From the NCBI GenBank assembly GCA_963828125.1, contig CAWHDP010000002.1, positions 1,504,001 to 1,568,000 on the forward strand: DNA of 64,000 nt. The letters are read 5' to 3'. The translations under genes and the position numbers were made by a program. Position 1 is the stretch's first letter. Each line of letters begins with the position of its first letter. Below, in pieces: positions 1,057-36,587 of the stretch. Source of the stretch: an uncultured Chlamydiae bacterium. GTDB lineage: Bacteria > Chlamydiota > Chlamydiia > Chlamydiales > SM23-39. The notes below the pieces were generated by a model. It did no database searches and was not told where the DNA came from. It saw only the letters and a list, made by a program, of their open reading frames with translations.

Positions 1057-1146
1057 GAGATTACTTTTAGTGGATTTTCAGTAAAGTTTGCGTTATATTC
1101 ACAACCTTGTTACCATGCTCGCATAATTTTTGTTTTGAGGTTAATC

Positions 1147-2469
1147 ATGAGTGCAATAGGTAGGGTTCCTCCTTTTGAGTTTCAATTCCTAACATTGGGT
1201 GATCCCGCTGTCAGCCCAACACTTCGATCTTGGGCCGATAAAAAAAAGGGAGATCCAGAGTACAACTTTCGACTAGAGGCGGCTGAAAAAATCGGAGAAT
1301 GCTATGCTGACAAGTCTGTATTATTAGATCTTAGCAGATTAAACCTCACCGCGCTCCCGCCTGAAATAGGGGAGCTCCAAAATTTAACAGAGCTCAAATT
1401 GTGGAAAAACAAGCTCACCGCGCTCCCGCCTGAAATAGGGAAGCTCCGAAATCTAACAACTCTCGACCTCGAAGGAAACCAGCTCACCGCGCTCCCGCCT
1501 GAAATAGGGGAGCTCCAAAATTTAACAGAGCTCCAGCTGTCTCTAAACAAGTTCGCCACGTTCCCCCCTGAAATAGGGAAGTTGCGAAATCTACAAAATC
1601 TTCGCCTGAACTCGAACCAGCTCACCGTGCTCCCGCGTGAAATAGAGGAGCTCCGAAATCTAACAAATCTCGACCTGTGGGGAAATGAGCTCACCGTGCT
1701 CCCCCGTGAAATAGGGAAACTCCGCAATCTACAAAATCTTCTCCTGAACGCGAACCGGCTCACCGTGCTCCCGTCTGAAATAGAGGAGCTCCGAAATCTA
1801 ACAACTCTCCACCTCGCAGGAAACCAGCTCACCGCGCTCCCGCCTGAAATAGGGAAACTCCAAAATTTAACAGAGCTCACCCTGTTTCAAAACCAGCTCA
1901 CCGTGCTCCCCCGTGAAATAGGGGGACTCCGAAATCTAACAAATCTCCTCCTGCAAGAAAACCGCCTCACCGCACTCCCGTCTGAAATAGGGGAGCTCCG
2001 AAATCTAACAACTCTCCACCTCGAAGAAAACCAGCTCACCGCGCTCCCGCCTGAAATAGGGAAGCTCCAAAATTTAATGAGGCTCTTCCTGCAAGGAAAC
2101 CAACTCACCATGCTCCCGTCTGAAATAGGGGGACTCCGAAATCTAGGAGAGCTCGATCTGCAAGGAAACCAACTCACCATGCTCCCGTCTGAAATAGGGG
2201 GACTCCGAAATCTAGGAGAGCTCGATCTGCAAAGAAACCAACTCACCGTGCTCCCGTCTGAAATAGGGGGACTCCGAAATCTAAGAGAGCTCTTCCTGCA
2301 AGGAAACCAACTCACCGTGCTCCCGTCTGAAATAGGGGAGCTCCGAACAAAGTTATATCTGAAAGGAAACCCGGAGCTCCTCCTGTTGATTAAAAAGTGT
2401 CTCTCACTGGTAGATGGCTTTCAGGATATACGACAAGTGGTCAACGCCTTCGAATCCCAGAAGGACTGA
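1147..2469 (+). CDS. Leucine-rich repeat protein (14 full 23-aa repeats plus a partial one), putative secreted effector
   Basis: Repeat LTxLPxEIGxLxNLxxLxLxxNx; N-cap R.EAAEKI.EC....LDLS.L resembles YopM/SspH-type LRR caps. ATG at 1147. Confidence 0.9.
   Translation: MSAIGRVPPFEFQFLTLGDPAVSPTLRSWADKKKGDPEYNFRLEAAEKIGECYADKSVLLDLSRLNLTALPPEIGELQNLTELKLWKNKLTALPPEIGKLRNLTTLDLEGNQLTALPPEIGELQNLTELQLSLNKFATFPPEIGKLRNLQNLRLNSNQLTVLPREIEELRNLTNLDLWGNELTVLPREIGKLRNLQNLLLNANRLTVLPSEIEELRNLTTLHLAGNQLTALPPEIGKLQNLTELTLFQNQLTVLPREIGGLRNLTNLLLQENRLTALPSEIGELRNLTTLHLEENQLTALPPEIGKLQNLMRLFLQGNQLTMLPSEIGGLRNLGELDLQGNQLTMLPSEIGGLRNLGELDLQRNQLTVLPSEIGGLRNLRELFLQGNQLTVLPSEIGELRTKLYLKGNPELLLLIKKCLSLVDGFQDIRQVVNAFESQKD
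1345..2345 (+). repeat. 69-bp coding tandem repeat array
   Basis: CTCACCG(C/T)GCTCCCG..TGAAATAGGG recurs every 69 bp from 1345 to 2311. Confidence 0.95.
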
Positions 2470-2541: not shown

Positions 2542-2682
2542 ATGCAACTTTTTGAATGTCTCAAAAGCATCCCCGACCCACGTAAAAAGCGCGGGATTCG
2601 TCCGGTGGCGGCCTTGGCTACAGCTTCTAAGAAAATTGAAATTCTTGCACATCAATTTGGGGGTTTGTTATACCGAAAATGA
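2542..2682 (+). pseudogene. ISAs1-family transposase N-terminal remnant
   Basis: SD AAGGAAG followed by MQLFECLKSIPDPRKKRGIR, the typical IPDPR..RG.R start; similarity is lost after about 20 codons. Confidence 0.65.
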
Positions 2683-2702
2683 CCCAAGAAAGGGGGGGAT
2701 CT

Positions 2703-5000
2703 ATGAGTCTTGTAAGATGGGTCGCGTTGAGCGGGGCCTTCGCAGCTATGATCACAGGTGGAACCGTCATCGCCTCAAATAAAGGCGTGGTGCTGCTGGG
2801 CGGAGAAAACAATACGAATCGAAGCGGCCCTCCCATCGCTTACCTCTTCTCGGCGAATGGGCAGGCGTCCCTTTTGCCTCCTGCCGCTTTTCCCGATGGC
2901 GGATATATATATAGCGTTGCGATTACTGATAGTGGGGCTGGCCTCATCGGAGGGATGAATTTCGGCGGCGTCCAGCCTCCCATCGCCTATCTCCTCTCTC
3001 CGAGTGGAACTATAACATCGCTTTTAGATGCATCGGCGTTCCCAAACGGCGGATTCATCTATAGCGTGGCTATGGCGCAAACGGGCGAAGGGATCATCGG
3101 CGGACAGAATAGCGCCGGCCCCCCAATCGCCTCTTTCGTCTCCTCAAATGGAACGTTGACTCCCATCGTATTGGAGGGAGATTCTATGTATTCCTCATCT
3201 GCATTGATGAATAACGTTGCTATCGCGAGCAGCGGCATTGGAATCCTTGGAGGACAGAGCGACGTCTCTCCGACTCCTCCGCTCTCTTATTCAGTGGCTT
3301 CCGATGCGGTTGCATCGTTTTTGGGACCCCCTGAACCCGATTTCCCGAGCGGTGCAGGGATCCTCAGCGTCTCCATTGCCGAGAATGGCGCTGCCCTGCT
3401 AGGGGGAATTAATTATGGCAGCGGCCCTCCAATATTGTATCGGCTCTATCCAGATGGAACTTTTACCAATCTTTCCACTGCAACCGGCCTCCCTGCGTCA
3501 GGATATATTAACAGCGTTTCAATTGCAGAAAATGGGATGGGTCTCATCGGAGGAACGGGGCCTACTTACCCGATCGCCTGCTTTGTCGCGCCAGATGGAG
3601 CGCTCACCGTTCTTGGAAGTGGAATCTTTCCTGCCGGAAGCATTTACAGTGTTGCCATCAACAATAGCTGTGCGGGAATCATCGGCGGACAGAGTGGCGC
3701 CGGGGAACAACCCCCGATCGCCTATCTCGTAGCTCCAAACGGCGCTCTTACAACTCTTGGCGATGGGGTTTTCCCTCCCAGTGGGGTCATCAATAGCGTA
3801 GCAATCAGTGAAAGTGGGGTCGGATTGATCGGAGGACAGAACAATCCCAATGGGAGCGGCTCTGCCATTGCTTATCTGGTGGCTCCGAACGGAACCCTCA
3901 CATCTCTGAGCTCTAATGGCGCCTTTTCCAGCAGCTCAACGGTCTCTAGCGTCGCCCTCTCCGATGCCATCGCCCCCCAATCCTTCGGCCCCTACAGCAG
4001 CCTGGCCAACGCCCTTTTCGCCCTCACCCATACCCTCGAAGATCATTACACAGGACGGAAAACTTTCTTCAAAAACACAAATGGCGCGCAAATCGCCGAC
4101 CTCGATTTGCTCGCAGGCCGCCGGCTGATTCCCCCGAAAAAGTCACCTCCCCCAAAACCCTGCCCCATCTGGAGCGTTTGGGGAGGCCCTTTTGGCGCCT
4201 TGATTTACCAAGACGCAAAGAAGGCCATACCAGCCTTCAGCGATGAAATAGCGGGTGTAATTGCGGCTGCCGAGTACAATGGGATCAAAAACGTCGCAAT
4301 CGGCGGCGGTCTCGCCTACGCTTTCACGTTCGTCAATTACAAAGAGAGCGTCGGCCACGCCTCGATCAACCAAGAATATGCCCTCATCTACGCCAATTTC
4401 AATCGCCCCTATTTCTTTTTCAATGCGGCTCTCTGGGGCGGCCTCTATCAACTCAGCAATAAGCGGCATACCCTCGGCTTCATCACCTCCACTTCAAACC
4501 CTAAGGGTTGGCTCTTATCGCCCCACGTAGAGTTGAGTACGCCTTTTCTTGTCAAAGGAGACTGGTTTGGCGTCGATCCATTTGCCATGGTCGATTGGGC
4601 CAATAGCTGGCAAGATTCGTTCCGCGAAAAAGGGAGATCGGGACTCAACATCTCCCTCAATAGCCAATACTCCTCCCTCCTCCGCAGCGAAATAGGCGTC
4701 CGCTTCTATGAAACCCTCAAATATGGCTGGGGTTGTCTCAAAATCGAGGAAAAAGCAAGCTACGTCAATAAAGCGCCTTTCCACACAGATCCAGGAACAG
4801 CCGCTTTCATAGGCGCCTTTTCTTCATTTGGCGTTGAGACCTTTAGTAGCTCCGTCCAAAATTTGGGTTTAGCGCAAATCGCATTCCACTTCACCCCTTC
4901 CCATCCGAAGTATCCCTATGGCTCAATCGACTATCAGGGCGAGTTCGGCTCTTCCTTTCAATCGCACCTTCTCGTGTTAGAGCTCGGACAATCTTTTTAA
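2703..5000 (+). CDS. Autotransporter with ~50-aa repeat passenger and C-terminal beta-barrel
   Basis: Hydrophobic N-terminus; repeats SVAI...G.GLIGG...PIAYLV.P.G.LT.L; C-terminal ~290 aa of amphipathic strands ending in F (LELGQSF). Confidence 0.85.
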   Translation: MSLVRWVALSGAFAAMITGGTVIASNKGVVLLGGENNTNRSGPPIAYLFSANGQASLLPPAAFPDGGYIYSVAITDSGAGLIGGMNFGGVQPPIAYLLSPSGTITSLLDASAFPNGGFIYSVAMAQTGEGIIGGQNSAGPPIASFVSSNGTLTPIVLEGDSMYSSSALMNNVAIASSGIGILGGQSDVSPTPPLSYSVASDAVASFLGPPEPDFPSGAGILSVSIAENGAALLGGINYGSGPPILYRLYPDGTFTNLSTATGLPASGYINSVSIAENGMGLIGGTGPTYPIACFVAPDGALTVLGSGIFPAGSIYSVAINNSCAGIIGGQSGAGEQPPIAYLVAPNGALTTLGDGVFPPSGVINSVAISESGVGLIGGQNNPNGSGSAIAYLVAPNGTLTSLSSNGAFSSSSTVSSVALSDAIAPQSFGPYSSLANALFALTHTLEDHYTGRKTFFKNTNGAQIADLDLLAGRRLIPPKKSPPPKPCPIWSVWGGPFGALIYQDAKKAIPAFSDEIAGVIAAAEYNGIKNVAIGGGLAYAFTFVNYKESVGHASINQEYALIYANFNRPYFFFNAALWGGLYQLSNKRHTLGFITSTSNPKGWLLSPHVELSTPFLVKGDWFGVDPFAMVDWANSWQDSFREKGRSGLNISLNSQYSSLLRSEIGVRFYETLKYGWGCLKIEEKASYVNKAPFHTDPGTAAFIGAFSSFGVETFSSSVQNLGLAQIAFHFTPSHPKYPYGSIDYQGEFGSSFQSHLLVLELGQSF

Positions 5001-5115: not shown

Positions 5116-5586
5116 ATGGATGGAAAACCGAAAGAAGGTTCAGTGGAGTCGCTCGTCGATGCTTTGCGTCTCCTCCTGATGGGAAGGAAAGCCAGCACTC
5201 AAGAGGCGATCTGTTCCGCCTTGGAAAAATTGGGATACGAAATCAACCAAACTAAGGTCTCTAGATTGCTCCGCAAGATCGGCGCGATCAAGATCGAAAA
5301 CGAACACGGGCAAACAGTCTATTCGCTCCCTCGCGAACCCGCTCCCCCCTCAATGAATACTCAAATTAGAGATTTGATCGTCAATATAGTGGCCAATGAG
5401 GCTTTAGTCGTTATTTTCACAAGCCCCGGATCTGCCTCAATGGTCGCGCGGGTTCTCGATTACAACCAGATCACCACCGAAATTCTCGGAACCATTGCTG
5501 GAGACGACACGATCTTTGTCGCCCCCAAAACAATCAAAGATATCCGAAAATTAACGGAAGAAATCAAGGGCTTACTCCAAAAATAG
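5116..5586 (+). CDS. argR: Arginine repressor
   Basis: TQEAI...L...GYEINQTKVSRLL winged-HTH; GTIAGDDTIFV arginine-binding motif. Confidence 0.95.
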   Translation: MDGKPKEGSVESLVDALRLLLMGRKASTQEAICSALEKLGYEINQTKVSRLLRKIGAIKIENEHGQTVYSLPREPAPPSMNTQIRDLIVNIVANEALVVIFTSPGSASMVARVLDYNQITTEILGTIAGDDTIFVAPKTIKDIRKLTEEIKGLLQK

Positions 5587-7014
5587 CGTTTCCTCAACTG
5601 TAGACAGCAGCTTCTCCTTCTCTATCAGCCAAGCAGCGACTTTTTCAGCTTTGATCGCATGCAAAGCAAACTGCCTATTGACCTGATTAGACGAGGTGCC
5701 CCCTTGGCTATCCCTTGTATTGACAATCCTTCTCAAATCGAGCATGGCCGCCACATCTTCAGCAAAAAGGGGAGAAAAATCTTGCAGTTCTCGCAAAGAG
5801 AGTTCTTCCAGTTTCCGATCGCTATCCAAACAATATCGGACAACCTTCCCCACAATCGCGTGCGCCTCCCTAAATGGAACGCCTTTCAAAGAGAGATAAT
5901 CGGCAAGTTCAGTAGCATTTAAAAGCCCCTCCTGAGTGGCCTGGAGCATTTTATCCGGCCGGACATGAAGGGTTTCTATCACTCCCCGGTAAATGCAGAG
6001 CGATGATTCAAGAGTCTTTACAGTATCAAAAAGGGGCTCTTTGTCTTCTTGCATATCTTTATTGTAGGCAAGAGGAAGCCCCTTCAGCAGGGTCAAAGTG
6101 GAGAATAGAGAACCATACACTCTTCCTGTCTTCCCTCTGACAAGTTCGGGTACGTCGGGATTTTTCTTCTGCGGCATAATACTGCTCCCAGTACAATAAG
6201 CGTCGTCCAGTTCGATAAAAGCAAACTCTTGACTGCACCAGAGGATCATCTCTTCGCTCAGGCGAGAAAGATGAGCCATGATCAGCGCCCCATGCGCTAG
6301 AAACTCGACGCAAAAATCGCGGTCGCTCACTGCATCGATACTATTTTCATAAAGAGAGTCAAATTTGAGAAGATCGGCCACCAGCCCTCGATCGATCGGC
6401 AGCCCTGTCCCCGCCAACGCACAAGCTCCAAGGGGCAGTTGATTGATGCGAGGCCAGCTCCCGATCAAACGATCCATATCCCGCCCCAAGCTCGCCGCAT
6501 AAGCCAATAGATGGTGGGCAAAAAGGATCGGTTGGGCCCGCTGAAGATGGGTGTATCCAGGCATCATCACATCGATGTTCTCCTTGGCTTTTTGCACCAG
6601 CGCTTCGGATAAGCCTTGCAAGAGAGAGACGACCCTTACGACTTTAGCCCTTAAATAAAGATGGAGATCCAATGCGACCTGATCGTTCCGGCTTCTCGCC
6701 GTATGCACTTTCCCAGCCAAAGGGCCGATGAGCGCCTTCAGCTCCTGCTCTATCTTCATATGGATATCTTCATCTGCCGCTGCAAAGGAGACGGCCCCTT
6801 GAGAAAGACGGTCTCTGATTTCGATGAGCCCTTTTTTGATTTTTTGGGCCTCTTCAAGGGTCAAAATCCCAACAGCTCCCAGCATTTGCACATGGGCCAC
6901 CCCCCCCAGAATGTCCAGACTGGCCAGTTCGCAATCAAAAAAGATCGAAGCGGTAAACGCCTCGACCTGAGACTGTGTCGCTTTCGTGAATCTTCCGTCC
7001 CAGGCTTTAGCCAT
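5572..7014 (-). CDS. argH: Argininosuccinate lyase
   Basis: WDGRF, HTARSRNDQVA, GSSIMPQKKNPD. Confidence 0.97.
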   Translation of the reverse strand: MAKAWDGRFTKATQSQVEAFTASIFFDCELASLDILGGVAHVQMLGAVGILTLEEAQKIKKGLIEIRDRLSQGAVSFAAADEDIHMKIEQELKALIGPLAGKVHTARSRNDQVALDLHLYLRAKVVRVVSLLQGLSEALVQKAKENIDVMMPGYTHLQRAQPILFAHHLLAYAASLGRDMDRLIGSWPRINQLPLGACALAGTGLPIDRGLVADLLKFDSLYENSIDAVSDRDFCVEFLAHGALIMAHLSRLSEEMILWCSQEFAFIELDDAYCTGSSIMPQKKNPDVPELVRGKTGRVYGSLFSTLTLLKGLPLAYNKDMQEDKEPLFDTVKTLESSLCIYRGVIETLHVRPDKMLQATQEGLLNATELADYLSLKGVPFREAHAIVGKVVRYCLDSDRKLEELSLRELQDFSPLFAEDVAAMLDLRRIVNTRDSQGGTSSNQVNRQFALHAIKAEKVAAWLIEKEKLLSTVEETLFLE

Positions 7015-8221
7015 ACTGGGCTCCCGCAATCAACCTTAAAGCGTTTAATTTGATAAACCCTTTAGCGTCTGTCTGATCATACCCAAGGGTCTCCTCCATG
7101 CTCGCCATTTGCGGCTGATAGAGAGAATAAGGCGAACTACGCCCAGTCACAATCACATTTCCTTTATAGAGAGTAAGAAAAACCTTGCCAGCCACCCTCT
7201 TCTGACTCTGGTGAACCGCTGCCATGAGAAAATCCATTTCAGGACTAAACCAAAATCCATTGTAGATGATCTGCGCGATTTTGGGAGCGAGGGTCTCTTT
7301 CAGAAGAATCACCTCCCTATCCAGAGTCATCCCTTCCAAATCCAAATGGGCTTTGAGGAGAATCGTCCCGCCAGGAGTCTCATACGCTCCACGCGATTTC
7401 ATCCCAACAAATCGACTTTCCACAAGATCCACTCTCCCAATCCCATGCCTTCCTCCTACCTCATTGAGATATTTGAACAGTTCCACAGAACCTACGATCT
7501 TTGCCCCTGTTCCCATCTCTTCCACCGAAATCGGATTTCCCCCTTGAAACTCAATCGCGATTTTCATCGCTTCATCGGGGGTATTTTCTAGCGAAACCGT
7601 CTTGAGAAACATCTCCTCCGAAGGAGTGTACATCGGGTCTTCCAGTTTTCCTCCCTCAAAACTGGTGTGCATCAGATTCGCATCAATGCTGTACGGCTTT
7701 TCCAAAGTAGAGGTGACAGAAATGCCATGGGCGCTCGCGTATTTTAACAGATCGCCCCTTCCCGAAAATTGCGCTAAAAATTCCCGATCTTTCCAGGGGC
7801 TAATGATCTCTGCGTGAGGAAGGTGCGTCAAAAGGGTCAGCTCAAAGCGCACCTGATCATTTCCTTTCCCCGTCGCCCCGTGTGCAAAGGATGCGATCTT
7901 TTCCCGTTCCGCAAGCTCCACTAATTTCTTCGCAATCAAAGGCCTTGCCAAAGCGGTGCCTAACAGATATTTCCCCTCATAAACAGCATGCGCCTTCAGA
8001 GAAGGAAAAATAAAATCTTCCACAAATTCTTTTTGCAAATTGGCAATATGAACCTCCGACGCCCCTACGGCAAAAGCCTTCTTCTTCGCCGCCTCTAAAT
8101 CCTCCTCTTGCCCCACATCAGCAATGAAACAGACGACATCGTAACCTTTCGTTGTCAGCCACTTCAAAATGACCGACGTATCGAGCCCGCCGCTATAGGC
8201 TAAAATCACTTTCTTCTTCAT
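7007..8221 (-). CDS. argG: Argininosuccinate synthase
   Basis: [35 protein letters not shown]. Confidence 0.97.
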
Positions 8222-11200
8222 TTTTTCCCTCCCATAAGAGCCATGATTAACGCTTTTTGTACATGCAACCGATTTTCACTTTGTTGAAAAATGACCGATT
8301 GGGGTGAATCGGGCAACGTTTCGCTCACCTCTTTTCCCCTGACCATCGGCATACAATGCATGAATATAGCCTCCGGTTTTGCAAGCGCCATGAGCTCTTC
8401 ATTGACTTGAAAACCGGCAAAAAGCTCCTCGTTCGCACCGTTTTCAAACCCCATGCTGGTCCAAACATCTGTATACACTGCGTGAGCGTCTAGAACCGCT
8501 ATATGAGGCGAAGTGTGCTCAGTGATCGATCCCCCTCTTCTAAAAGCCCTCGCTAAAATTTCCGCTTTAGGACCCCGTCCAACGGGACAGCAATAGTGCA
8601 GATGGACGCCCATCATCGGCGCCATGAGGAGAAGACTGTGGAGAATATTGTTCCCGTCCCCGATATAAGTCACTTTAACCCCTTCAAGAGAGCCAAATGT
8701 TTCCTGCAAAGTGAGGAGATCGGCCAAAATCTGGCAAGGATGGTGATCATCCGAAAGGGCGTTGATGATAGGAATAGAGGATACTTTCCCCATGCGGCTT
8801 AAATCTTCGTCGCTATGAGTCCGGATCATAATCCCGTCGCAATACCCCGCAAGCACTCTGACCCAATCTTCAGGTTCCTCTTTCTTTCGATCGCCGCTTA
8901 CACTCTCTATCACCGTACCGCCCAATTCTTGCATCGCCACTGTGAAACTAAATCGGGTCCGCAAAGAGGGTTTCTCGAACAGCATGGCTAAGTGCTTTCC
9001 CTTGAGCGCCAGAGCCGTTTGACCCCCTTTCCTTAAATGTTTCAACTCGCTGGCCAGGTTGAGTAAAGATCGAATTTCGCTAGAGGTGAGCTCCTCTCCG
9101 GTAATGAGATGTTTAGTCGAATGGATCCATTGATTGAGAGATTGCACGCTATGCTCCGATCTGATTATGAATGCTTTTAATAAAGCTGTTGCAGCGCTTG
9201 CCGTCGTGGCATGGCAAATACGCCGTGTGATGGCAAGACGCCTTAACTCTGTCTCCCCTTTGCCGATTGCAATGATCAGTTCAATATCCTTTGCGTCCGG
9301 ATCGAAAGCCTGGCAAGGGATGCCGTGAGTCTGAAGGAACTCTAAAGTGGGAGAGGTTGCATATAAAGTCAGAGGCAGCGCTAAGAGATCGCGCGCCATC
9401 TCAATGCTTATACCACAGCCGAGAAGGGCCCCGCTACCCGGTTTGGGAAGCGGATACCCGGAAGCAATTTGCGCCTTTGCATAGCTTGTAGCAAAATCGC
9501 TATCTAGCCCCATCACCTCTCCTGTCGATTTCATTTCGGGACCCAAAATCGAGTCCACATTGTCAAATTTAGAAAACGGGAAAACAGCCTCCTTGACAGC
9601 AAAATAGGGGAGTACAGGAGGCTCAACATACCCTTGCTCTTTCAAAGAAGTTCCCAATAGACAACGGGTCGCTATTTTGACGAGATCGATCCCAGTCGCT
9701 TTTGAGGTGAAGGGGGCGGTTCGGGAGGCTCTAGGATTGACCTCCAAGACGTAAATCCCGTTGTTCTGAATGGCAAATTGAATATTGAGGAGCCCAACAA
9801 AATGGAGGCCCAAAGCGATCTGCTTCGTCTGTTCCAAAAGCTCTTTTTGCAAGGAGGCAGATAAACTAAAGGGAGGGAGAGAGCAGGCAGAGTCTCCCGA
9901 ATGGATGCCCGCCGGCTCAACATGCTCTAAAATCCCCGGAACATACACGTCGGATCCATCGGATATCGCATCGATATCGACCTCTGTCGCATCCATTAAA
10001 AACCGCTCTATCAGCACCGGCTTTTCAGCAGAGGCTGAAAAAGCCTCCAAAAGACAGCTTTCTAATTCGCCCTCCTGGTTGACAATAGCCATCGCTCGCC
10101 CCCCCAAAACAAAAGAGGGTCTGACAATCAGAGGATAGCCCATCTGCTTCCCAGCAGACAACCCCTCCTCTAATGAATGGACGATCAAGTTGTCCGGCTG
10201 TTTGAGGCCCAAAGTATTTAAAAATTGCTTGAAACTAGCCCGATCTTCTGTTTTTTCAATCCATTCGGACGTCATGCCAAGGAGCGGCACTCCAGCTTTT
10301 ACAAGAGGACCTGTCAAGTTTAAAGGAGTCTGCCCCCCATACTGTACAATCACGCCAAGAGGTTTTTCTATATCGACAATCGCCAAAATATCTTCCGCAG
10401 TCAGTGGAGAGCAGTAGAGCTTGTCTGCGCAATCGTAATCGGTCGAGACCGTTTCCGGATTGCAGTTGACGATGATCGTCTCATAGCCCTCTTCCTTCAA
10501 GGCTTGAATCGCATGCACGCAGCTATAATCAAATTCGATCCCCTGGCCAATTCGGGAAGGTCCGCTCCCTAAAATCATCATCTTAGGGAGATCTGTAGGA
10601 TAGGCCTCGCACTCCTCTTCATAGCTGGAGTAAAGATAAGCGATCGATGTGGCAAATTCAGCAGCGCAAGAATCGATCCGCTTAAACCCAGGGACAATCC
10701 CCCATTCTCCTCTTTTCGCTCTGATCTCCTCTTCGCTACAGCCAGAAAAAATACCGATTTGCACGTCGGAAAAACCCAATTTCTTCAAAGCGCGCAGATC
10801 TTCTTTATCCTCTATTTTTTTCTCCGCCTGGACAAGCTCCTCGATTTGGTGAAGAAACCAAGGATCGATCTGGGTCAAATCGTTGACTTGGGCCAAAGAC
10901 ATCCCCTCTCGAAAAGCATCAAAAATCGCCCAAAGCCTAAAGGGACCCGGAATGTCCAAAGACCGGTGTTTAGGAATCGATCCAACCTCCATGCTTCTCA
11001 TCCCTTTAAGAAGAGCCTCCTGAAACGTCCTTCCGATCGCCATCGCCTCCCCCACAGAGCGCATCTGAGTCCCCAATTTTTCCTCGCAACCTTTGAACTT
11101 CTCAAAATTAAAACGGGGTATTTTAACCACCACATAATCCAGGGTCGGCTCAAAAGAGGCCGGAATCTGATTCCCCGTTAATTCGCTCGAAAGCTCCGGC

Positions 11201-12198
11201 AAGGTGTAACCCACGGCCAGCTTCGCCGCGACTTTAGCAATCGGAAAACCGGTCGCTTTAGAGGCCAAAGCAGACGATCTGGAGACTCGGGGGTTCATTT
11301 CGATCACAACCATTCTCCCGTTTTTCGGATCTATTCCGAATTGCACATTCGACCCGCCCGTCTCTACGCCAATCGCTCGTAAAATCGAAAAAGAGGCGTC
11401 CCTCATAGTTTGATATTCTTTATCGGTCAATGTTTGGGCAGGAGCTACTGTGATCGAATCCCCCGTATGAATCCCTAAAGGATCGATATTTTCAATAGAG
11501 CAGACAATGATGCAGTTATCGCTTCGATCCCGCACAACCTCCATTTCGAATTCTTTCCAACCCACCAAAGCCTCATCAAGAAGAATTTCTTGGCCTCGCG
11601 GAGTTTGATGTAAAGCAGCTTTACATAAAGAAAAAAACTCCTCTTCCGTGTGGGCAATCCCGCTCCCGCTTCCCCCTAAAATAAAAGAGGGGCGTACAAT
11701 AATGGGCAGTCCCAAAGCTCCCAAAACCTCCTTCGCCTCTTCGATATTTTTAGCAGATCCCGACTTTGGTAAATCCAACCCTAGAGTCTGAATGGTTTGT
11801 CGAAACAAAGAGCGATCTTCGGCAAGCTCAATGGCCTCAGGCGTTACGCCAAGAAGTTCCACTCCTAGAGCCGCAAGACAGCCGCTTTTTGCCAGCTCGA
11901 GAGCCACATTGAGCGCCGTTTGCCCCCCCATAGTCGGCAAGATCGCGCAAGGTTTTTCTTTTTCAATGACTTTCATCACAAATTCTTTCGTAATCGGCTC
12001 AATGTAGACGACGTCCGCCACCGATAGATCGGTCATGATCGTCGCTGGATTTGAATTGATGAGAACGACCTTGTAGCCCTCTTCGCGCAGCGCAATACAA
12101 GCTTGGGTCCCCGCGTAATCGAATTCGCAAGCCTGCCCGATCACAATCGGACCCGATCCGATGAGAAGGATTTTTTGAATATCAGTTCGCTTTGGCAT
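8218..12198 (-). CDS. carB: Carbamoyl-phosphate synthase large subunit fused to C-terminal ornithine carbamoyltransferase (CarB-ArgF)
   Basis: Residues 1 to ~1025 are CarB (MPKRTDI..., GQACEFDY, two ATP-grasp halves with [10 protein letters not shown] and EVNPRASRT). The last ~300 aa are OTCase ([35 protein letters not shown]). Confidence 0.95.
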
Positions 12199-13282
12199 GT
12201 TCGTTTTCCATTAATCTGACAAATTGGTCGAATAAAACCTGTAATTCATGAGGTCCTGGACTTGCTTCCGGATGTCCCTGAAAGCTAAAGGCCGGTTTGT
12301 CCTTTCTCGCAATGCCAGCCACGCTTTTGTCAAAAAGAGAGCGGTGCGTCACCATCAAACAAGGAGGAACCGTTTTTTCATCGACCGCAAAACCGTGGTT
12401 TTGGCTGCTGATCCATACTTTGCCTGTAGCAATCTCCAAAATCGGATGATTAGCTCCATGATGGCCCTGTTCCATTTTCACCGTTTTTGCCCCGCTAGCG
12501 AGCGCCAGTAGCTGATGCCCTAAACAAATGCCAAATATAGGAATCAGGGACTCAAGGAGAATCCGGATCGTTTGAATCGCACCATAGCAAGCAGCCGGAT
12601 CGCCCGGACCGTTCGATAAAAATATCCCATCCGGCTTGAGCTTTAAGATAGCGTCGGCCGTCGCATTGGGAGGGACGACCGTTAGACGACAGCCCGAGGC
12701 GACGAGTTTTTGCAAAATAGCGTTTTTGATTCCAAAATCAAGGACAACAACGTGAAGAGAAGCATCTTGAACTCCCCATTCGGATAAGAAGTCGGAGGCG
12801 ACTTCCTGGGTCATGTTTTTCCCCTCTAAGCCAGAAAAACCCTTGGCTTGGCGCAAAGCGAAATCGACGTCGACTTTTCCTCCCATAATACAGGCATTTA
12901 AGCTCCCCTTCGTCCTTAAGATATGGGTCAATTTCCGAGTGTCAATCTCCGATAAAGCCACCACATTCTGGTTTTTAAGGAGACTTTGCAAATCGCCCGT
13001 CGCCCGCCAATTGCTAGGCCACTGAGCCAGCTTGCGCATGACGACCCCGCCCGCCCAAATTTGATCCGACTCCCTATCGTCCTCATTGACGCCAACATTC
13101 CCAATATGGGGATAAGTAAAACTGATGATCTGTCCCGCATAGGAAGGATCGGTTAAAATCTCTTGATACCCGGTCATTGCCGTATTGAAGACGAGCTCCC
13201 CGACAAAAACCCCCTCCGCCCCGACCGATTCCCCCCAAAGAAGAGTTCCGTCCTCAAGCGCTAATAATCCGTCCTTTTCCAT
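12182..13282 (-). CDS. carA: Carbamoyl-phosphate synthase small subunit
   Basis: [46 protein letters not shown]. Confidence 0.97.
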
Positions 13283-13289
13283 CTTTGGC

Positions 13290-13469
13290 TCAAATTCTCG
13301 GATAAGTAAAGCTAACCGCCGGCGGCGAGTAAAAAAAAGCGCTCAAGGGCTCTAACTGACCTACCGGACAGTGATTCAGCACCACCTCTCCTATAGTGAT
13401 TCCTCCGGCTCCTAATGATTCTATCCAAAAAAGCATCCCGTCAGGGGTTATCGATTTTTCGTTTTTCAT
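13290..13469 (-). CDS. 59-aa leader ORF, diverged paralogue of the CarA N-terminus
   Basis: SD AAGGAGAG; MKNEKSITPDGMLFWIESLGAGGITIGEVVLNHCPVGQLEPLSAFFYSPPAVSFTYPRI*; 23/50 gapless identity to CarA residues 11-60. Confidence 0.75.
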   Translation of the reverse strand: MKNEKSITPDGMLFWIESLGAGGITIGEVVLNHCPVGQLEPLSAFFYSPPAVSFTYPRI

Positions 13470-13495
13470 AAACTCTCCTTGTTGTTATGCGATTT

Positions 13496-13525
13496 ATTAT
13501 ACACGGAAATGAATATTTATTCAAC
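13496..13525 (-). promoter_or_regulatory. Sigma66/70 promoter of the car-arg operon overlapped by an ARG box
   Basis: Minus strand TTGAAT (13524-13519), 17 bp, TATAAT (13501-13496). ARG box AATGAATATTTATTCAAC at 13508-13525. Confidence 0.8.
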
Positions 13526-13592
13526 AAATAGATTCGATGTGAACGGCAAGCTCCTTGCTGTTAGCATGTTAAATATAAATATGGTGAGTTTT

Positions 13593-13623
13593 ATTGACTA
13601 AATATTCATTTTAAATATATAAT
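13593..13623 (+). promoter_or_regulatory. argCJBD promoter overlapped by an ARG box
   Basis: TTGACT (13594-13599), 18 bp, TATAAT (13618-13623). ARG box ATTGACTAAATATTCATT at 13593-13610. Confidence 0.75.
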
Positions 13624-13643
13624 GAACGGCAACAACAGAGGAA

Positions 13644-14696
13644 ATGATGATTAAAGTAGGGGTTGCGGGAGCCACTGGATATGTAGGGATTGAATTGATT
13701 CGGATTCTTGCCGGGCATCCCCGAGTTGAGCTTGTCTATGTCGCAACTCAATCCCACATAAATGAGGCGCTGAAGACGGTATACCCGCACCTTCAAAGGA
13801 TCGTCGACATGAACTGCTCTCCGTTGGATGCGGCTGAGATGGCAAACCAGTGCGACGTTGTTTTTACGGCTCTTCCCCATGGGATTGCATTAAGCCTTGC
13901 TGAGCCGATCCTCAAAGCGGGGAAAAAACTCATTGATCTTGGAGCCGATTTTCGGCTGAAAAACCGCGCGCTTTATGAACAGTGGTATGGGAAACCCTCG
14001 GCCTCTTCCGAACAGCTCGAATCTGCCGTCTATGGCCTTCCAGAAATTATATCGCCAAAGATCATCCAAGGATCTGATCTGATTGCAAATCCTGGGTGCT
14101 ACCCCACCTGCATCGCCCTCGGAGCCAGTCCTCCGATCTTTCATAAGATCGTAAAACTAGAGGGGATGATTTTCGATGCTAAATCGGGAGTTTCAGGCTC
14201 TGGGAAAAGCCTTTCTCTCAATTCCCATTTTTGTGAAGTCGCTGAAAATTTTAAAGCCTACGCAATAGCTGGAAGCCATCGCCACACTCCAGAAATCGAA
14301 CAAATTTTAAGCGAGCTCACAAAGACTCCTGTAACGGTCCAATTTACGCCCCATCTCATCCCGATGATCCGGGGACTTTTAGTGACCGGCTATTTCCAGC
14401 TTCAAAAAGAGATCTCTGCAGAGGCCGTTTGGCACATTTATTCACAGTACTATAAGAACAAACCCTTCGTCCGATTATGTCCGCTTGGGACGCTTCCTCA
14501 AACAGCCAATGTCAGAGGGTCTAATTACTGCGATATCGGCCTTGCGCTCGATCTCCGGACGAACACCTTGATTGTCGTCAGCGTGATTGACAATCTTGTC
14601 AAAGGGGCCGCAGGGCAAGCGGTCCAAAATATGAATATCTTGTTTGAACTGCCGGAAACGATGGGGCTCAATCAGCTATGTCCAACTTATCCATGA
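13644..14696 (+). CDS. argC: N-acetyl-gamma-glutamyl-phosphate reductase
   Basis: GATGYVG, IANPGCYPT, HRHTPEI, DNLVKGAAGQAVQN. Confidence 0.97.
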   Translation: MMIKVGVAGATGYVGIELIRILAGHPRVELVYVATQSHINEALKTVYPHLQRIVDMNCSPLDAAEMANQCDVVFTALPHGIALSLAEPILKAGKKLIDLGADFRLKNRALYEQWYGKPSASSEQLESAVYGLPEIISPKIIQGSDLIANPGCYPTCIALGASPPIFHKIVKLEGMIFDAKSGVSGSGKSLSLNSHFCEVAENFKAYAIAGSHRHTPEIEQILSELTKTPVTVQFTPHLIPMIRGLLVTGYFQLQKEISAEAVWHIYSQYYKNKPFVRLCPLGTLPQTANVRGSNYCDIGLALDLRTNTLIVVSVIDNLVKGAAGQAVQNMNILFELPETMGLNQLCPTYP

Positions 14697-15907
14697 AGAA
14701 AAAACATATTGAAGGAGGCATTTCAGCCCCTCTTGGCTTTATGGCCTCCGGGGTGCCCGCAGACTTAAGGGGAAAGGGGGACGTCAAAAAAGACGTCGCC
14801 CTCATTTTCAGCGAAGTCCCTGCCGTAGCTGCCGGCGTCTTTACGAAAAATTCTGTCAAAGCGGCGCCTATTTTGGTGACCCAAGAAGCGATCCAGCAAG
14901 GGCTCTTGCAAGCGATTGTCATCAATAGCCGCAATGCGAACGCCTGCACAGGCCGGCAAGGGATCACAGATGCAAAAGAGATGTGCAAGCTCGCAGCTGA
15001 CGCGTTGCAGATCGATCCGGGACAGGTGGCCGTCAGCAGCACCGGCGTCATTGGGGTTCCCCTCCCGATGACCCGGCTCGCTCCAGGGATTCTGGCCGCC
15101 GCCGCGCATCTGGATAAAAAGGGAAATTCCGATGCAGCGGTTGCGATCATGACTACCGATACCTATCCGAAAGAGCTCGCCCTTCAATTGGAATTGGGGG
15201 GAGCTAGAGTCACGATCGGAGGCGTGGCCAAAGGTTCCGGCATGGTACATCCCGATATGGCGACGATTCTAGGTTTTATCACGACCGACGCGAACATTTC
15301 TCTCAATGCGCTTAAAATGGCTCTAAAACAAGGGAGCGACGACTCCTTTAACATGATCAGCGTCGATGGAGATACGTCGACAAACGACATGGTTCTCGCC
15401 ATGGCCAATGGGCTGGCGGGCAATCCTCAAATCGAGATCGGAACCCCTATTTTTGAAGAATTTTGCGAGGCATTGAAATATGTCCTCATTTTTCTAGCCA
15501 AAGAGGTCGCCCGCGACGGAGAGGGGGCCACTAAGCTTCTAGAAGTGTGCGTACAAGGAGCGAGCTGCGTCGAAGAGGCGAGACTTGCGGCTAGATCCGT
15601 TTGCAGCTCTCTTCTCGTCAAGACAGCTATTTTTGGAAAAGACGCCAATTGGGGACGGATCCTTTGCGCTCTCGGTTATTCAGGAGCCTCTTTTGATCCA
15701 AATCAGGCAGATCTTTATATCGGCAACGTGCAAGTGATGGGGAAAGGGGCGCCCCTTCTTTTTGATGAGGCGGCAGCCTTAGACATCCTCTCCGAATCCC
15801 ACGTATTGGTGACGGCCCATCTCCATGCAGGCAACGCCTCGGCCACAAGTTGGGGATGCGATCTTTCCTACGATTATGTAAAGATCAATGGAGCCTATCG
15901 AACATGA
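14693..15907 (+). CDS. argJ: Glutamate N-acetyltransferase / ornithine acetyltransferase
   Basis: NANACTG, IMTTDT, KGSGMVHPDMATILGF, DGDTSTND, ARDGEGATK; ATGA overlap with argC. Confidence 0.97.
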   Translation: MKKKHIEGGISAPLGFMASGVPADLRGKGDVKKDVALIFSEVPAVAAGVFTKNSVKAAPILVTQEAIQQGLLQAIVINSRNANACTGRQGITDAKEMCKLAADALQIDPGQVAVSSTGVIGVPLPMTRLAPGILAAAAHLDKKGNSDAAVAIMTTDTYPKELALQLELGGARVTIGGVAKGSGMVHPDMATILGFITTDANISLNALKMALKQGSDDSFNMISVDGDTSTNDMVLAMANGLAGNPQIEIGTPIFEEFCEALKYVLIFLAKEVARDGEGATKLLEVCVQGASCVEEARLAARSVCSSLLVKTAIFGKDANWGRILCALGYSGASFDPNQADLYIGNVQVMGKGAPLLFDEAAALDILSESHVLVTAHLHAGNASATSWGCDLSYDYVKINGAYRT

Positions 15908-16695
15908 GACCGAAAATCGTTGTGATCAAATACGGGGGCGCTGCCATGCAAACTCCGGCCCTTATTCAAACAACGCTCCAAGACGTCGTCCGCCTCAAGA
16001 GGTTGGGAATACAGCCCGTTCTGGTTCATGGAGGCGGACCGGAAATATCAAAGATGTGTCAACAAATGGGGATCGTTCCCGCTTTTGTCAATGGGCTGCG
16101 GGTTACGGATAGAGAAACCCTTGAAATCGCGCAAATGGTGCTTGTCGGAAAAATCAATAAAGAACTTGTCTCCCTACTCAACCAAGAAGAAGGGAGGGCA
16201 GTCGGTCTCTCCGGACAAGACGCCAACTTGATCTTGGCCAAACAAGCGGATAAGAACCTTGGATTCGTAGGAGAAATTGAGCAGGTGAACCCCGAGATTC
16301 TCATCCTGCTCATTGAAGCGGGATTCATCCCCGTGATTGCCCCAATGGCAACGTCCAAAAGATCTCAAAGCTACAATATCAATGCCGATAGCGCGGCGAG
16401 CGAGATCGGAGCCGCTCTTCAAGCAGATTCTCTCATTCTGCTCACCGATGTAGAAGGAGTTTTGAAAGACCCTAAAGACCCCAGCACAAAGATCGATATA
16501 ATAAAAACCTCTGAATGGGGCGCCGTAGTCGAAAGCGGCAGCTTGAAAGGGGGAATGATCCCCAAAATAGAGGGGGCCTTAGCCGCGATTCAGAGAGGTG
16601 TGAATCAGGTGCATATTTTGGATGGAAGGGTTCCGAACGTCCTTCTCCTCCATTTTCAGGATCGGGAAACAAAAGGGACAAGCATCTATGTTTAA
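15904..16695 (+). CDS. argB: Acetylglutamate kinase
   Basis: VIKYGGAAM, VHGGGPEI, YNINAD, GGMIPK. Confidence 0.96.
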   Translation: MRPKIVVIKYGGAAMQTPALIQTTLQDVVRLKRLGIQPVLVHGGGPEISKMCQQMGIVPAFVNGLRVTDRETLEIAQMVLVGKINKELVSLLNQEEGRAVGLSGQDANLILAKQADKNLGFVGEIEQVNPEILILLIEAGFIPVIAPMATSKRSQSYNINADSAASEIGAALQADSLILLTDVEGVLKDPKDPSTKIDIIKTSEWGAVVESGSLKGGMIPKIEGALAAIQRGVNQVHILDGRVPNVLLLHFQDRETKGTSIYV

Positions 16696-17887
16696 ATCCA
16701 AAACCGAAGAAATTGTGGCGCTCGACAAAAAGTATCTCATGAACACGTACAACCGATATCCGATCGCGATCGTGAAGGGGGATGGAATGGAGGTTTATGA
16801 CGCCGATGGGAAAAAATATCTCGATTTTCTTGGAGGAATTGCCGTAAACGTTTTAGGTCACTGCCACCCCAAAGTAGTCGATGCGATTATTGCGCAAGTC
16901 AAAGAATTGATTCATACATCGAATCTCTACTACACAAAGCCCGCTGCGGAATTGGCCGAATTACTCTCTTTAAACGGAGGGTTGGATAAAATCTTTTTCT
17001 GCAATTCAGGAGCCGAGGCCAATGAAGGCGCCATCAAACTGAGCCGCAAATACCAATGGAGAAAAGGGCGCCGGGAAAAATATAAAATCATTACAGCAAC
17101 CCATTCTTTTCACGGACGGACCCTCGCAGCTCTTGCAGCGACCCATAAACCCGAAATTCAAGAGGGTTTCGGTCCATTGCCCGATGGATTTCAAGCGGTC
17201 CCTTGGAACGACACTCAAAAATTCCTCGAGAGTATCGATGAGACAACCGCAGCCGTTTTAATCGAACCCATTCAAGGAGAAGGAGGGATCCACTCTGCCA
17301 CACGAGACTTTTTAGAAAAAATTCGGGCCGCATGCGATCGGGTAGGAGCCCTTCTGATCTTTGATGAAATTCAATGCGGCATGGGCCGCTCGGGAACCCT
17401 CTTTGCTTATGAAAATTTTGCCGTTAAGCCTGACGTCATTACTTTGGCTAAAGGGATTGCCAGCGGACTTCCCCTGGGCGCTATTTGCGCAACGAATGGA
17501 GCCGCTGAAGCGTTTCATCCAGGAGATCACGGGACGACATTCGGCGCAAATCCGGTCGCCGCGGCGGCCGCTCTAGCCACTTTAAAAGTTCTCATTGAAG
17601 AGAACTACCTTCCAAAGGTGGCTAAAATGGGCGCTCTTCTCATGGAAAAACTCCACGAACTCCAAATAAAATATCCGCAAGCCATCGCCGAAGTTCGGGG
17701 GCTCGGACTCATGATCGGGATAGAGCTCAAAATAGATCCGAAAATAGTGCTGCAAAAATGCCACGCTAGAGGGCTCCTTGCCAATGTGACAGCAGGAAAC
17801 GTCCTCCGCCTTCTTCCCGCCTACACAATTACTGCAAAAGAGATCGGCCAGGCCGTTTCCATTATCGAAAGCGCTATTGTTGGATAA
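16688..17887 (+). CDS. argD: Acetylornithine aminotransferase
   Basis: FCNSGAEANE, SFHGRT, FDEIQCGMGR, LAKG; arg operon context. Confidence 0.93.
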   Translation: MFKSKTEEIVALDKKYLMNTYNRYPIAIVKGDGMEVYDADGKKYLDFLGGIAVNVLGHCHPKVVDAIIAQVKELIHTSNLYYTKPAAELAELLSLNGGLDKIFFCNSGAEANEGAIKLSRKYQWRKGRREKYKIITATHSFHGRTLAALAATHKPEIQEGFGPLPDGFQAVPWNDTQKFLESIDETTAAVLIEPIQGEGGIHSATRDFLEKIRAACDRVGALLIFDEIQCGMGRSGTLFAYENFAVKPDVITLAKGIASGLPLGAICATNGAAEAFHPGDHGTTFGANPVAAAAALATLKVLIEENYLPKVAKMGALLMEKLHELQIKYPQAIAEVRGLGLMIGIELKIDPKIVLQKCHARGLLANVTAGNVLRLLPAYTITAKEIGQAVSIIESAIVG

Positions 17888-17891: not shown

Positions 17892-18641
17892 TTAAGGAGC
17901 ATTCGGATACAGAACATAGATAATTTGCTGAACCTGTTCCGGGGCTACAATAATCGTCTGAAGCTGCAATCCCTGCGGTTGGTACTGAATTTGCAGTAAA
18001 CTATTGTTTACCGAAATGCTGAGGACGTTTTTGAGCAGCCCGTTTGTGATGGGCGGAGAAAAGGGGCCGTTTAGCGTCGTCTGAATCCAAACTTGGCTCA
18101 GCCCAGACTGGAATGTTTTTGAGCTAAGCGACGTCACCGCCGACACAATATCGACTGCCCGTTGTTTGGGATCCACTGAATAAAACGGGATCGTCCCACT
18201 CGGATAAGTCGAAGTAAAAGGGGCCGTTGAGGAGGGGAGATTATATTTTTGCGGAAAATAGAGAAATGCGATCACATCTTCGACTGGCAATACGAGATAC
18301 TGGGTGATCGTTTGGGACTGCGGAGGAAGATAGGAGATGATTAAAAGGGTGTTGTAGGGCGTCTCATTGATCGCTTGAATGTAAGGGATGATTCCATTGA
18401 TCAAATATCTATAAGAAGCGTAGGGCAAGGTCGCCAACTTGGTCTGCAGAGCCACTTCAGGGACTTGAATGCCGGAGGCGTGGACAAGCGTATTGAACGT
18501 ATTGTAAATTTCCGTCCCCCGATTCGCTGAGTCAATGGGAAATACAACCGGCTGGCCTGTCAGAGCCATCACGACAACAGCGCTTGAGGCGGCCGAAAAT
18601 AGAGGAATACGCAAAAGCAAAAGGAGCCAACGGCAAATCAT
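17892..18641 (-). CDS. Hypothetical exported protein with two similar ~105-aa domains
   Basis: Signal-peptide-like N-terminus and a visible internal duplication. Confidence 0.75.
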   Translation of the reverse strand: MICRWLLLLLRIPLFSAASSAVVVMALTGQPVVFPIDSANRGTEIYNTFNTLVHASGIQVPEVALQTKLATLPYASYRYLINGIIPYIQAINETPYNTLLIISYLPPQSQTITQYLVLPVEDVIAFLYFPQKYNLPSSTAPFTSTYPSGTIPFYSVDPKQRAVDIVSAVTSLSSKTFQSGLSQVWIQTTLNGPFSPPITNGLLKNVLSISVNNSLLQIQYQPQGLQLQTIIVAPEQVQQIIYVLYPNAP

Positions 18642-20904: not shown

Positions 20905-22005
20905 ATGAGGAACTATACAAACAAAACTGTTTATTTGGGAATGGACGTGCATAAAAAAACTTACGCCGTGACTGCAATTTGTGATGGTCAGGTCGTGAAG
21001 AAAGACACCTTAAAAGCAGACCCTGCCATTTTGGTAGCTTACTGCAAAAAATATTTTATTGGAGCCAAAATCGAGAGCGCTTATGAAGCTGGGTTTTGCG
21101 GCTTTTATTTACATCGATGTTTAAAAGCGCAGGGCATTACAAATATAGTGGTAGACGCAGCTGGAATGGAGGTTGCTGTCGGAGATCGAGTAAAAACAGA
21201 TAAACGAGACTCTCTGAAATTAGCCACTCATCTTTCAGTCGGAAGGTTGCGTGGAATACGCGTTCCTTCGGTCGAGCGCGAGGACTATAGGGCTGTAACA
21301 CGACTACGAGAAACCTTTACTCGGCAACGATCACGTTTTGCTTGCCAGTTAAAATCATTGCTTTTTCAACACGGCTTGATTCGCGCTGATGACAAGAAAA
21401 AAATCTCCGAAAAGTGGGCAAAAGTTCTCGAGACAATGCCACTATCTGCAGGGCTAAAATTTGCTATTGCAAATTATCTCGCCCAATGGCGCCAAATGAC
21501 CGCAAAAATCAAGGAAATAAATCGGGAACTGGCTGTTCAAGCACAGAAAGATGGGGCTATAGAGGCGATTTACAGGAGCGTTCCAGGAATAGGAGAGGTG
21601 TCCGCTCGAGTTTTGGCCAATGAGCTTGAAGACACTTTACAATTTAGCAATGAGAAAACACTCTTTAGCTATACGGGACTTACTCCGAGCGAATACTCAT
21701 CTGGCGAACACGTTCGCCAAGGCCATATTACTCGGCACGGGAAACCTATTTTGCGAAAAATATTGGTACAGACAGCTTGGAAAGCGATTGGCATAGACTC
21801 TTCTCTCGAAGAAATTTTTCTGAGGCTTTCAACCAGAATTGGAAAGAAAAGGGCGATTATAGGCATAGCAAGGCGATTGATTGGTCGCATCCACGCTTGT
21901 TTTAGAACGGGCGAATTGTATCGTATCCCATCAACTAAAAATGGAAAAGCAGAAGAGAAAAGCGTGGCTGTCCAAGAATCTCAGCTGGCTAACGTGACTC
22001 CGTAA
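20905..22005 (+). CDS. IS110-family transposase/recombinase
   Basis: GMDVHK, YEAGFCG, KTDKRDS (DEDD); SVPGIG, GLTPSEYSSG. Confidence 0.95.
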   Translation: MRNYTNKTVYLGMDVHKKTYAVTAICDGQVVKKDTLKADPAILVAYCKKYFIGAKIESAYEAGFCGFYLHRCLKAQGITNIVVDAAGMEVAVGDRVKTDKRDSLKLATHLSVGRLRGIRVPSVEREDYRAVTRLRETFTRQRSRFACQLKSLLFQHGLIRADDKKKISEKWAKVLETMPLSAGLKFAIANYLAQWRQMTAKIKEINRELAVQAQKDGAIEAIYRSVPGIGEVSARVLANELEDTLQFSNEKTLFSYTGLTPSEYSSGEHVRQGHITRHGKPILRKILVQTAWKAIGIDSSLEEIFLRLSTRIGKKRAIIGIARRLIGRIHACFRTGELYRIPSTKNGKAEEKSVAVQESQLANVTP

Positions 22006-27700: not shown

Positions 27701-27804
27701 AATTTTCCTTAATGTAAAGCTGCTTTAAAATATGGGGCGACTTAGGATCGTCGATCCCCAGGGCTTTGGCGTGGATCCAAAGCCAAGTTATTGACCGCAG
27801 GTGC

Positions 27805-27972
27805 TATACTGCGGCCACCCCAAAAGTGTGAATTTGGGCAGCGTCAAAGCGGCCAACAAATCGACGATCCTAACGTGCCTAGTATTAAACCAATACAAGG
27901 CACGTTACGATCCTCGATTTTTGGCGCTTTCACGCTTGCCCAAATTCACACTTTTGGGGTGGTCGCAGTATA
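27805..27972. repeat. Palindromic element family A, 168-bp full-length form
   Basis: End-to-end imperfect palindrome TATACTGCGGCCACCCCAAAAGTGTGAATTTGGGCA...TGCCCAAATTCACACTTTTGGGGTGGTCGCAGTATA. Confidence 0.92.
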
Positions 27973-32287: not shown

Positions 32288-32344
32288 GGCTCATAGGATA
32301 AAGGCCAAACGGATCCAAGTAAAGGGCTTTTCTTCCGATCGAGT

Positions 32345-36539: not shown

Positions 36540-36587
36540 GCCGAGAAGGATAGCACAATTGGCCGATTCATGGTATAAACTCTCACT

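Follow-up and report, generated by a model that had tools for sequence, protein, structure and literature searches.

The 64,000-nucleotide stretch of DNA analysed here (the window; contig CAWHDP010000002.1 of an uncultured Chlamydiae bacterium) carries at 8218..12198 on the minus strand a gene, carB::argF, whose 1326-aa product joins CarB, the carbamoyl-phosphate synthetase (CPS) large subunit, to ArgF, an ornithine carbamoyltransferase (OTCase). A reading made from the sequence alone (the sequence-only reading) had proposed such a single frame, and this was borne out by the open reading frame (ORF) list, NCBIfam and Pfam: the ORF contained no internal stops, the CarB families PRK05294 (residues 1-1021, 1447 bits, cut-off 599) and TIGR01369 (1331 bits, cut-off 1027) and the OTCase families TIGR00658 (314 bits, cut-off 281) and PRK00779 (347 bits, cut-off 306; both on residues 1027-1323) all exceeded their cut-offs, and TIGR00658 scored 319 when given the OTCase domain alone. 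Pfam placed CPSase_L_D1, D2 and D3, OTCace_N and OTCace on the protein; its MGS family gave no match at E<=0.001. On the minus strand the gene comprises the CarB synthetase part, with two ATP-grasp halves and an oligomerisation domain (residues 1 to about 910, 9469..12198; Pfam and alignment), a reduced MGS (allosteric) domain (residues about 911-1023, 9130..9468; E. coli alignment and fold model), the junction WIHST (9115..9129; comparison with genomes G197 and G270) and the OTCase domain (residues 1029-1326, 8218..9114; NCBIfam and motifs). A ten-residue motif from 9117 lay where the sequence-only reading, which had the OTCase start at about 9120, had placed it.

Continuity at 9100-9200, on which the proposed fusion depended, was established with contigs of three runs that cross this region without a stop and with 0 differences. 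An 18-kb contig of soil run X1 (possibly the source) agreed throughout, showing 0 differences, while those of soil runs X2 (9078-9347) and X3 (9046-9228) crossed the junction with 0 differences and 0 gaps, the three runs being separate samples of one study, not separate studies. A marine run of another study (X4) contained scattered identical carB pieces, none of which, among the matches listed, lay over the junction. The identical contigs rule out an assembly frameshift as the source of the fusion, and the fusion of CarB and OTCase in one continuous frame is confirmed as real. The statement that no separate argF occurs in the window holds for the whole genome: no other OTCase, aspartate carbamoyltransferase (ATCase) or CarB was found in the 2.37-Mb, 95%-complete source genome. 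Within the phylum, close matches were present only in G197 and G270 among 399 other genomes; these two have the same gene order and separate carB and argF genes overlapping by 7 nt (ATGTTAA), the final carB codons containing the argF ribosome site. Between the common SLNQ and KHL codons, the junction measures 15 nt in the window; G197 has 38 nt there and G270 has 26 nt, and these longer segments include the carB stop as well as the ATG and ribosome site of argF. The window gene has lost that original argF start with its ribosome site, and the overlap in G197 and G270 suggests that a short deletion removed stop, start and ribosome site together in the window lineage. The operon also occurs, seemingly without the fusion, in a further genome, G648, which is rich in frameshifts and was left out of the counts.

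The CarB half was 57% identical to E. coli CarB, and all 30 checked E. coli positions between 129 and 848 were identical in the window except for Q784P and V787I. Positions that we take to be catalytic or ATP-binding were kept in the first half (R129, R169, E215, H243, Q285, E299, N301, R303 and R306) and in the second (R675, R715, E761, H788, Q829, E841, N843, R845 and R848), as were the equivalents of the triad C269/H353/E355 in the separately encoded CarA. Two E. coli segments, 410-424 and 479-485, are absent from the window CarB; the former, which lies in the oligomerisation domain, is also absent from proteins P0070, P0072 and P0073, and present in most other fusions. The MGS-like tail, described earlier as short, proved to be a reduced MGS domain about 25 residues shorter than that of E. 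coli, without a Pfam match and with a folded core in the model. The equivalents of S948, K954, K993, N1015-T1017, D1025 and S1026 were lost, K954, N1015-T1017, D1025 and S1026 presumably being neighbours of the nucleotide site, and those of T974/T977 and T1042 were kept. At the predicted ornithine site, to which we assign E783, D791, E892 and L907, these four positions and T1042 were kept and Y1040 was replaced by H. Unfused kin of the window CarB displayed the same loss pattern of UMP/IMP-site residues, indicating that the MGS erosion is older than the fusion and ruling out the fusion as its cause. Since S948, T977 and K993 have been assigned to UMP/IMP and T1042 to ornithine (PMC6245113), the window CPS is likely insensitive to UMP and IMP and may have retained activation by ornithine. 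The predicted change in allostery was upheld as regards the missing UMP/IMP residues, and not as an effect of the fusion.

The OTCase half contains, on the minus strand, FEKPSLRT (8956-8979), HPCQ (8731-8742), the ornithine loop DVWTSMG (8449-8469; SMGF at 8457) and HCMP (8347-8358), the SLRT and HCMP variants lying where the sequence-only reading had placed them. The carbamoyl-phosphate (CP) motifs FxKxSxRT and HPxQ are present, with Lys at the third position. In OTCases, the x of SxRT can be any residue, DxxxSMG is the hallmark of the enzyme and the HxLP motif's side chains make no substrate contact (PMC4581275). The D, S, M and G of DxxxSMG did not vary in any of the 51 fused rows, and SMG was present in 119 of 120 short relatives, 117 of which also had SLRT; HCMP, in which Met replaces the Leu of HxLP, occurred in 35 of the 51 fused rows and in the six closest unfused ArgFs. 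Compared with solved OTCases, the 80s loop lacks about 3 residues. On the sequences compared, SLRT, HCMP and the short 80s loop are traits of a subfamily (Legionellales, Bdellovibrionota and the window clade), fused or unfused alike, and an altered substrate, for which the sequence-only reading had wanted SLRT and HCMP checked, was rejected, both being common in kin and SxRT permitting any x. The N-acetylornithine (AOTCase) and putrescine (PTCase) carbamoyltransferase models of NCBIfam scored 141 and 218 on the fusion protein (cut-offs 288 and 500), and the ATCase models reached 136-142 bits, far below their cut-offs of 237 and 263, an SMG loop standing in place of RxQxER. An identity as AOTCase, N-succinylornithine carbamoyltransferase (SOTCase) or PTCase was rejected in view of these low AOTCase and PTCase scores and the SMG, and argJ in the cluster gives ornithine; the acceptor of the fused OTCase is most likely ornithine. 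At columns 95% conserved in 33 close kin, the OTCase half had one real deviation (L291I; range in kin 0-6), and neither half looked decayed in the residue comparison.

A fold model of residues 530-1326, built with 54 sequences, had a mean pLDDT of 87.5 and a pTM of 0.68, with both parts folded, the reduced MGS core at pLDDT 82-96 and a weak linker at 60-69. Its fold matches were to E. coli CPS (top matches E. coli CarAB 1JDB, 1BXR and 1CE8) and, separately, to anabolic OTCases, and among the PDB chains listed there was none spanning both halves. The best PDB matches of the OTCase half, at E~1e-73, were Bacillus-type 4NF2 and Pyrococcus 1A1S. The low confidence of the linker would suit a continuous frame that yields mostly separate products, by linker cleavage or by a restart at an in-frame GTG just before the junction (V1018, 9145..9147, minus strand, with GGAG 6 nt upstream); the confinement to one lineage, the arginine operon being present in 0 of 102 other genomes of the family (and in 3 of 129 of the family of G197), would suit a recent, slightly harmful accident. 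We consider either very improbable, because such a ribosome site precedes 9 of the 100 start-type codons of the fusion ORF, so that chance suffices to explain the one at V1018, argF has lost its own start and ribosome site, neither half shows decay and the identical allele was found in three samples.

The architecture was not unique to the window. When residues 940-1326 of the fusion were scored against proteins of 729-2321 aa, 76 matches were obtained: 50 CarB+OTCase fusions (44 full-length, 1258-1372 aa), nine ArgH+OTCase fusions, five close unfused CarBs and 12 other OTCase-bearing proteins. Where named, the CarB+OTCase fusions came from Legionella (including L. massiliensis), Tatlockia, Legionellales and Gammaproteobacteria; their public records are annotated as one half only. 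The linker of the gammaproteobacterial fusions was 15 residues long in 42 of 50, with a recurring HPxKT motif. In the order of Legionella resiliens, this OTCase type was found in 65 of 203 scored genomes: in 14 it was in frame with CarB (all 14 checked, some cut or broken), in eight it lay in frames of 735-802 aa (the five checked were ArgH fusions) and in 43 in short frames. GTDB and metagenome locus scans contained no fused or close relatives among the matches listed and are uninformative on absence. The patchy spread points to horizontal acquisition of the arginine cluster. The ArgH-ArgF proteins of Legionella relatives (P0017, P0032, P0034, P0038, P0042, P0046, P0056, P0058 and P0059) are about 740 aa long, as at L166:7663-9879, and match ArgH only to about residue 420; the gene order suggests that they derive from argG-argH-carA-carB::argF by loss of carA-carB. 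Proteins P0060-P0069 and P0074 combine an OTCase with Clp_N repeats (PF02861), with ArgG, with ArgR and ArgD, or in a eukaryotic ArgB-ArgC-OTCase; these are candidates, possibly including artefacts. Many stand-alone Legionella ArgFs (L022, L025, L028, L141-L148, L153) have a conserved N-terminal extension of about 60 aa. This extension did not match the CarB tail. When ArgFs that stand alone or are joined to ArgH were searched with a profile of that tail for an N-terminal remnant of it, nothing came above threshold (best E 0.048), and the idea of such a remnant was rejected.

A quick LG+G4 tree of CarB, built from 48 of the 71 rows (every one of the 21 unfused and 27 of the 50 fused), placed the window CarB inside an eight-row clade with seven unfused CarBs (SH-aLRT 100), nearest to P0070 (87%) and also close to P0072. 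Forcing all fusions into one clade was 196 log units worse (p-AU 6e-116). In the OTCase tree the window half grouped with G197 and G270 (support 84, weaker than in the CarB tree), and the six closest ArgFs (85, 81, 82, 78, 75 and 76%) were stand-alone proteins of 304-308 aa with their own Met; one ArgF of this clade bears the source label 'Verrucomicrobia bacterium'. An approximately unbiased (AU) test on the OTCase tree (p 2e-81) was discarded, as short gammaproteobacterial rows inside the tested clade confound it. Among Legionella, stand-alone and ArgH-fused ArgFs nested among the CarB-fused ones, suggesting that the junction was made and unmade repeatedly. The window fusion most likely arose separately from that of the Legionellales and other Gammaproteobacteria, two origins being the simplest reading. 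The eight-row clade was sister to 26 other fusions (support 99), and this, together with the evidence from Legionella that the CarB part has been split off or lost, is what would be expected if one ancestral fusion had been inherited by both clades, split repeatedly in the chlamydial relatives and kept in the window. Such a history appears improbable, however: it needs at least three fissions, all rebuilding the same stop/start overlap; the window junction has 9 residues instead of mostly 15, lacks HPxKT and reads as an unfused CarB tail spliced to an unfused ArgF start; and carB directly ahead of a separate argF is also the layout of Bacillaceae.

The source genome had a TopA-SWI fusion over cut-off, which we take to be a chlamydial trait, and four full nucleotide transporters; a search for Chlam_OMP6 had matches nowhere, controls included. 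No pyrB, I, C, D, E or F was detected in this genome (G000, 95% complete) by tblastn with same-genus queries, and none of the PyrF, HypF and CmcH-type families was over cut-off. Genus mates such as G006 possess a different CarAB (about 43%) plus pyrB-I-C-D-E-F, and the two glycosyltransferase genes flanking the pyr genes in G006 are adjacent in G000. The best reading is that the window CPS is dedicated to arginine, no other CP consumer having been found in the source genome. G197 and G270 each have one CarB and no ATCase match, yet their carB and argF are unfused, which suggests that dedication of the CPS permits fusion and does not force it. Among the ten fused genomes of the Legionellales order, which are kin and not independent tests, nine had a second CarB (the exception being a 1.2-Mb assembly) and all ten an ATCase-like match of 27-34%. 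The pathway from glutamate to arginine is complete in the chlamydia-like source genome (window 5116-17887 plus G000:C2:1268452-1270459), and its combination of an arginine pathway with the absence of the pyrimidine cluster is the reverse of that of several genus mates. Some family members (L169:2775-7706, G090) have instead a catabolic set consisting of an arginine-deiminase-like gene, a kinase-like gene and an ArcB-type OTCase.

We consider it probable that the protein is bifunctional and works by passive tethering, a short linker holding an arginine-dedicated CPS large subunit to an anabolic OTCase of the ordinary type. The fusion would have arisen on a terminal branch when a small deletion took out the overlapping carB stop and argF start, would have formed because its cost was nil, and would be tolerated because the window CPS has no other CP customer. 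CarA would bind the CarB half and supply ammonia, and CP released at the second ATP-grasp site would be taken up by the tethered OTCase. As OTCase active sites are shared between the subunits of the trimer (PMC4581275), the fused OTCase is predicted to trimerise, giving a particle in which an OTCase trimer carries up to three CarA-CarB units. We infer an enzyme that ignores UMP and IMP, is perhaps activated by ornithine and is repressed by ArgR; any benefit would lie in a fixed 1:1 stoichiometry and proximity, not in a sealed tunnel.

The fusion could instead be a selected channeling device, favoured twice because it hands CP directly to the OTCase, in effect a CAD/Ura2 of the arginine side with a defined trimer. 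The labile CP is channelled in part in Ura2/CAD and in thermophiles (PMC6245113, PMC6022934), there would be two origins from sister operons, and the fusion was retained for long in the gammaproteobacterial clade with its constant linker length and recurring HPxKT. In addition, both regions named as self-association domains of E. coli CPS (PMC6245113) are altered in the window CarB, 410-424 being deleted and the MGS domain shortened, which would spare a clash between CPS dimer and OTCase trimer. We nevertheless regard selected channeling as unlikely. The window protein is the sole fused member found in its own clade, which otherwise has seven CarBs without a fusion partner and short ArgFs by the dozen; unfused kin also have the eroded MGS and lack 410-424, and most other fusions keep 410-424; and the hosts appear mesophilic, E. 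coli giving no sign of CP channeling (PMC6245113). Moreover, the same OTCase is joined to ArgH in nine clusters and forms a short frame in 43 of the 65 Legionellales-order genomes, suggesting that its N-terminus accepts whatever gene sits upstream. The most far-reaching version, in which an arginine-side CAD evolved at least twice from a CPS freed of pyrimidine duty, nucleotide control and self-association and became a three-armed particle that channels CP around a trimeric OTCase hub, we hold to be doubtful. Several points weigh against the account set out here: the constant 15-residue linker hints at more than passive tethering in the gammaproteobacterial fusions; the window CarB retains T977, a residue described as crucial to inhibition by UMP; a CP consumer may have been missed in a 95%-complete genome; and a single ancient fusion followed by several fissions, though less parsimonious, is compatible with the quick LG+G4 trees alone.

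The fusion gene lies in a full arginine cluster. On the minus strand, it is preceded by carA, encoding the separate glutaminase subunit (12182..13282; NCBIfam), and followed by argG (7007..8221), which overlaps the fusion stop by 4 nt, and argH (5572..7029; both ORF list and NCBIfam); argR (5116..5586, plus strand; Pfam and NCBIfam) is convergent on argH, and the divergent operon argC-argJ-argB-argD (13644..17887, plus strand; ORF list, Pfam and NCBIfam) would supply ornithine. Palindromes resembling the ARG box, according to the consensus that we take to apply, were located before the carA operon (13510..13523) and before argC (13595..13608); the window had four such matches against 0.77 expected, two of them in the carA/argC gap, and both of these sites are also kept in G197 and G270. 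Between the ARG box and carA there is a 59-aa ORF with a strong ribosome site (13290-13469, minus strand) and no NCBIfam match, and the corresponding stretch is missing from G197 and G270. The cluster is flanked by a repeat-rich, autotransporter-like ORF of 773 aa (2679-5000, plus strand) and a 249-aa ORF (17892-18641, minus strand), both without NCBIfam matches, and 3 kb off it lies an intact-looking IS110-type transposase gene (20905-22005, plus strand). Elsewhere, the window contains a gene for a leucine-rich-repeat protein of 444 aa, whose 23-residue repeats are very regular and which is of a type known from host-associated bacteria (1135-2469, plus strand), a surface-polysaccharide cluster (25820-39692) coding for an asparagine-synthetase-like amidotransferase, WecB/WecC-like proteins, an ABC exporter and glycosyltransferases, and a KdoO-like Kdo hydroxylase gene (50661-51581, plus strand; 224 bits, below the cut-off of 300).

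In layout the protein is the arginine-side analogue of CAD that the sequence-only reading had seen in it: as in CAD/Ura2, a pathway-dedicated CPS stands N-terminal to a carbamoyltransferase, trimeric there and predicted to be so here, in one chain (PMC6245113, PMC6022934, PMC4581275). It differs in that the acceptor enzyme is OTCase and not ATCase, in its linker of about 9 residues with no spacer resembling dihydroorotase (DHO; active or inactive in CAD/Ura2), in its separate glutaminase CarA and in being bacterial and, most likely, independently evolved. With E. coli CarAB it shares the catalytic and ornithine-site residues, unlike which it has largely lost the UMP/IMP site, has a shorter MGS domain, lacks 410-424 and is fused at the CarB C-terminus; with the anabolic OTCases 4NF2 and 1A1S it shares FxK-SxRT, HPxQ and DxxxSMG, and differs from them in SLRT for STRT, HCMP for HCLP and the shorter 80s loop. 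Bacillus has two specialised CPSs (PMC6245113). The Bacillus arginine CPS gene likewise lies directly upstream of argF and overlaps it (carA-carB-argF at L034, L036 and L045), but it is unfused, about 43% identical and outside the window clade. The Legionella, Tatlockia and gammaproteobacterial fusions resemble the window protein in architecture, size, sister operon, OTCase subfamily and eroded MGS; they differ in their probably separate origin, their linker and the second, housekeeping CarB kept by their hosts, and in the eight loci inspected argCJBD was, unlike in the window, not beside the fusion.

No description of a CPS-OTCase fusion was found in the literature searched, which excluded supplements and most subscription journals, so that an earlier mention may exist; the fusions named in the accessible parts of PMC6245113, PMC6022934, PMC4581275, PMC7311316, PMC8242063 and bioRxiv 10.64898/2026.04.11.717937 were ATCase ones only. 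The CarB-ArgF fusion is recurrent and most likely convergent; it is built from ordinary enzymes and apparently undescribed. One practical consequence is a correction of annotation, as fusions labelled by one half make argF or carB appear to be missing. Fusion of a CPS to a transcarbamylase is textbook knowledge only for the eukaryotic pyrimidine enzyme; the arginine version would have had two origins, each on a CPS no longer serving pyrimidines, and in the window it belongs to an arginine pathway that is complete, the chlamydia-like host being one in which no pyrimidine synthesis was found. The near-identical unfused operons provide a natural control for distinguishing CP channeling from a free by-product of gene adjacency, and if convergent channeling were true, the natural fused/unfused pairs, which share 70-87% identity, would allow what the fusion is worth to be measured directly, and in a much simpler particle than CAD.

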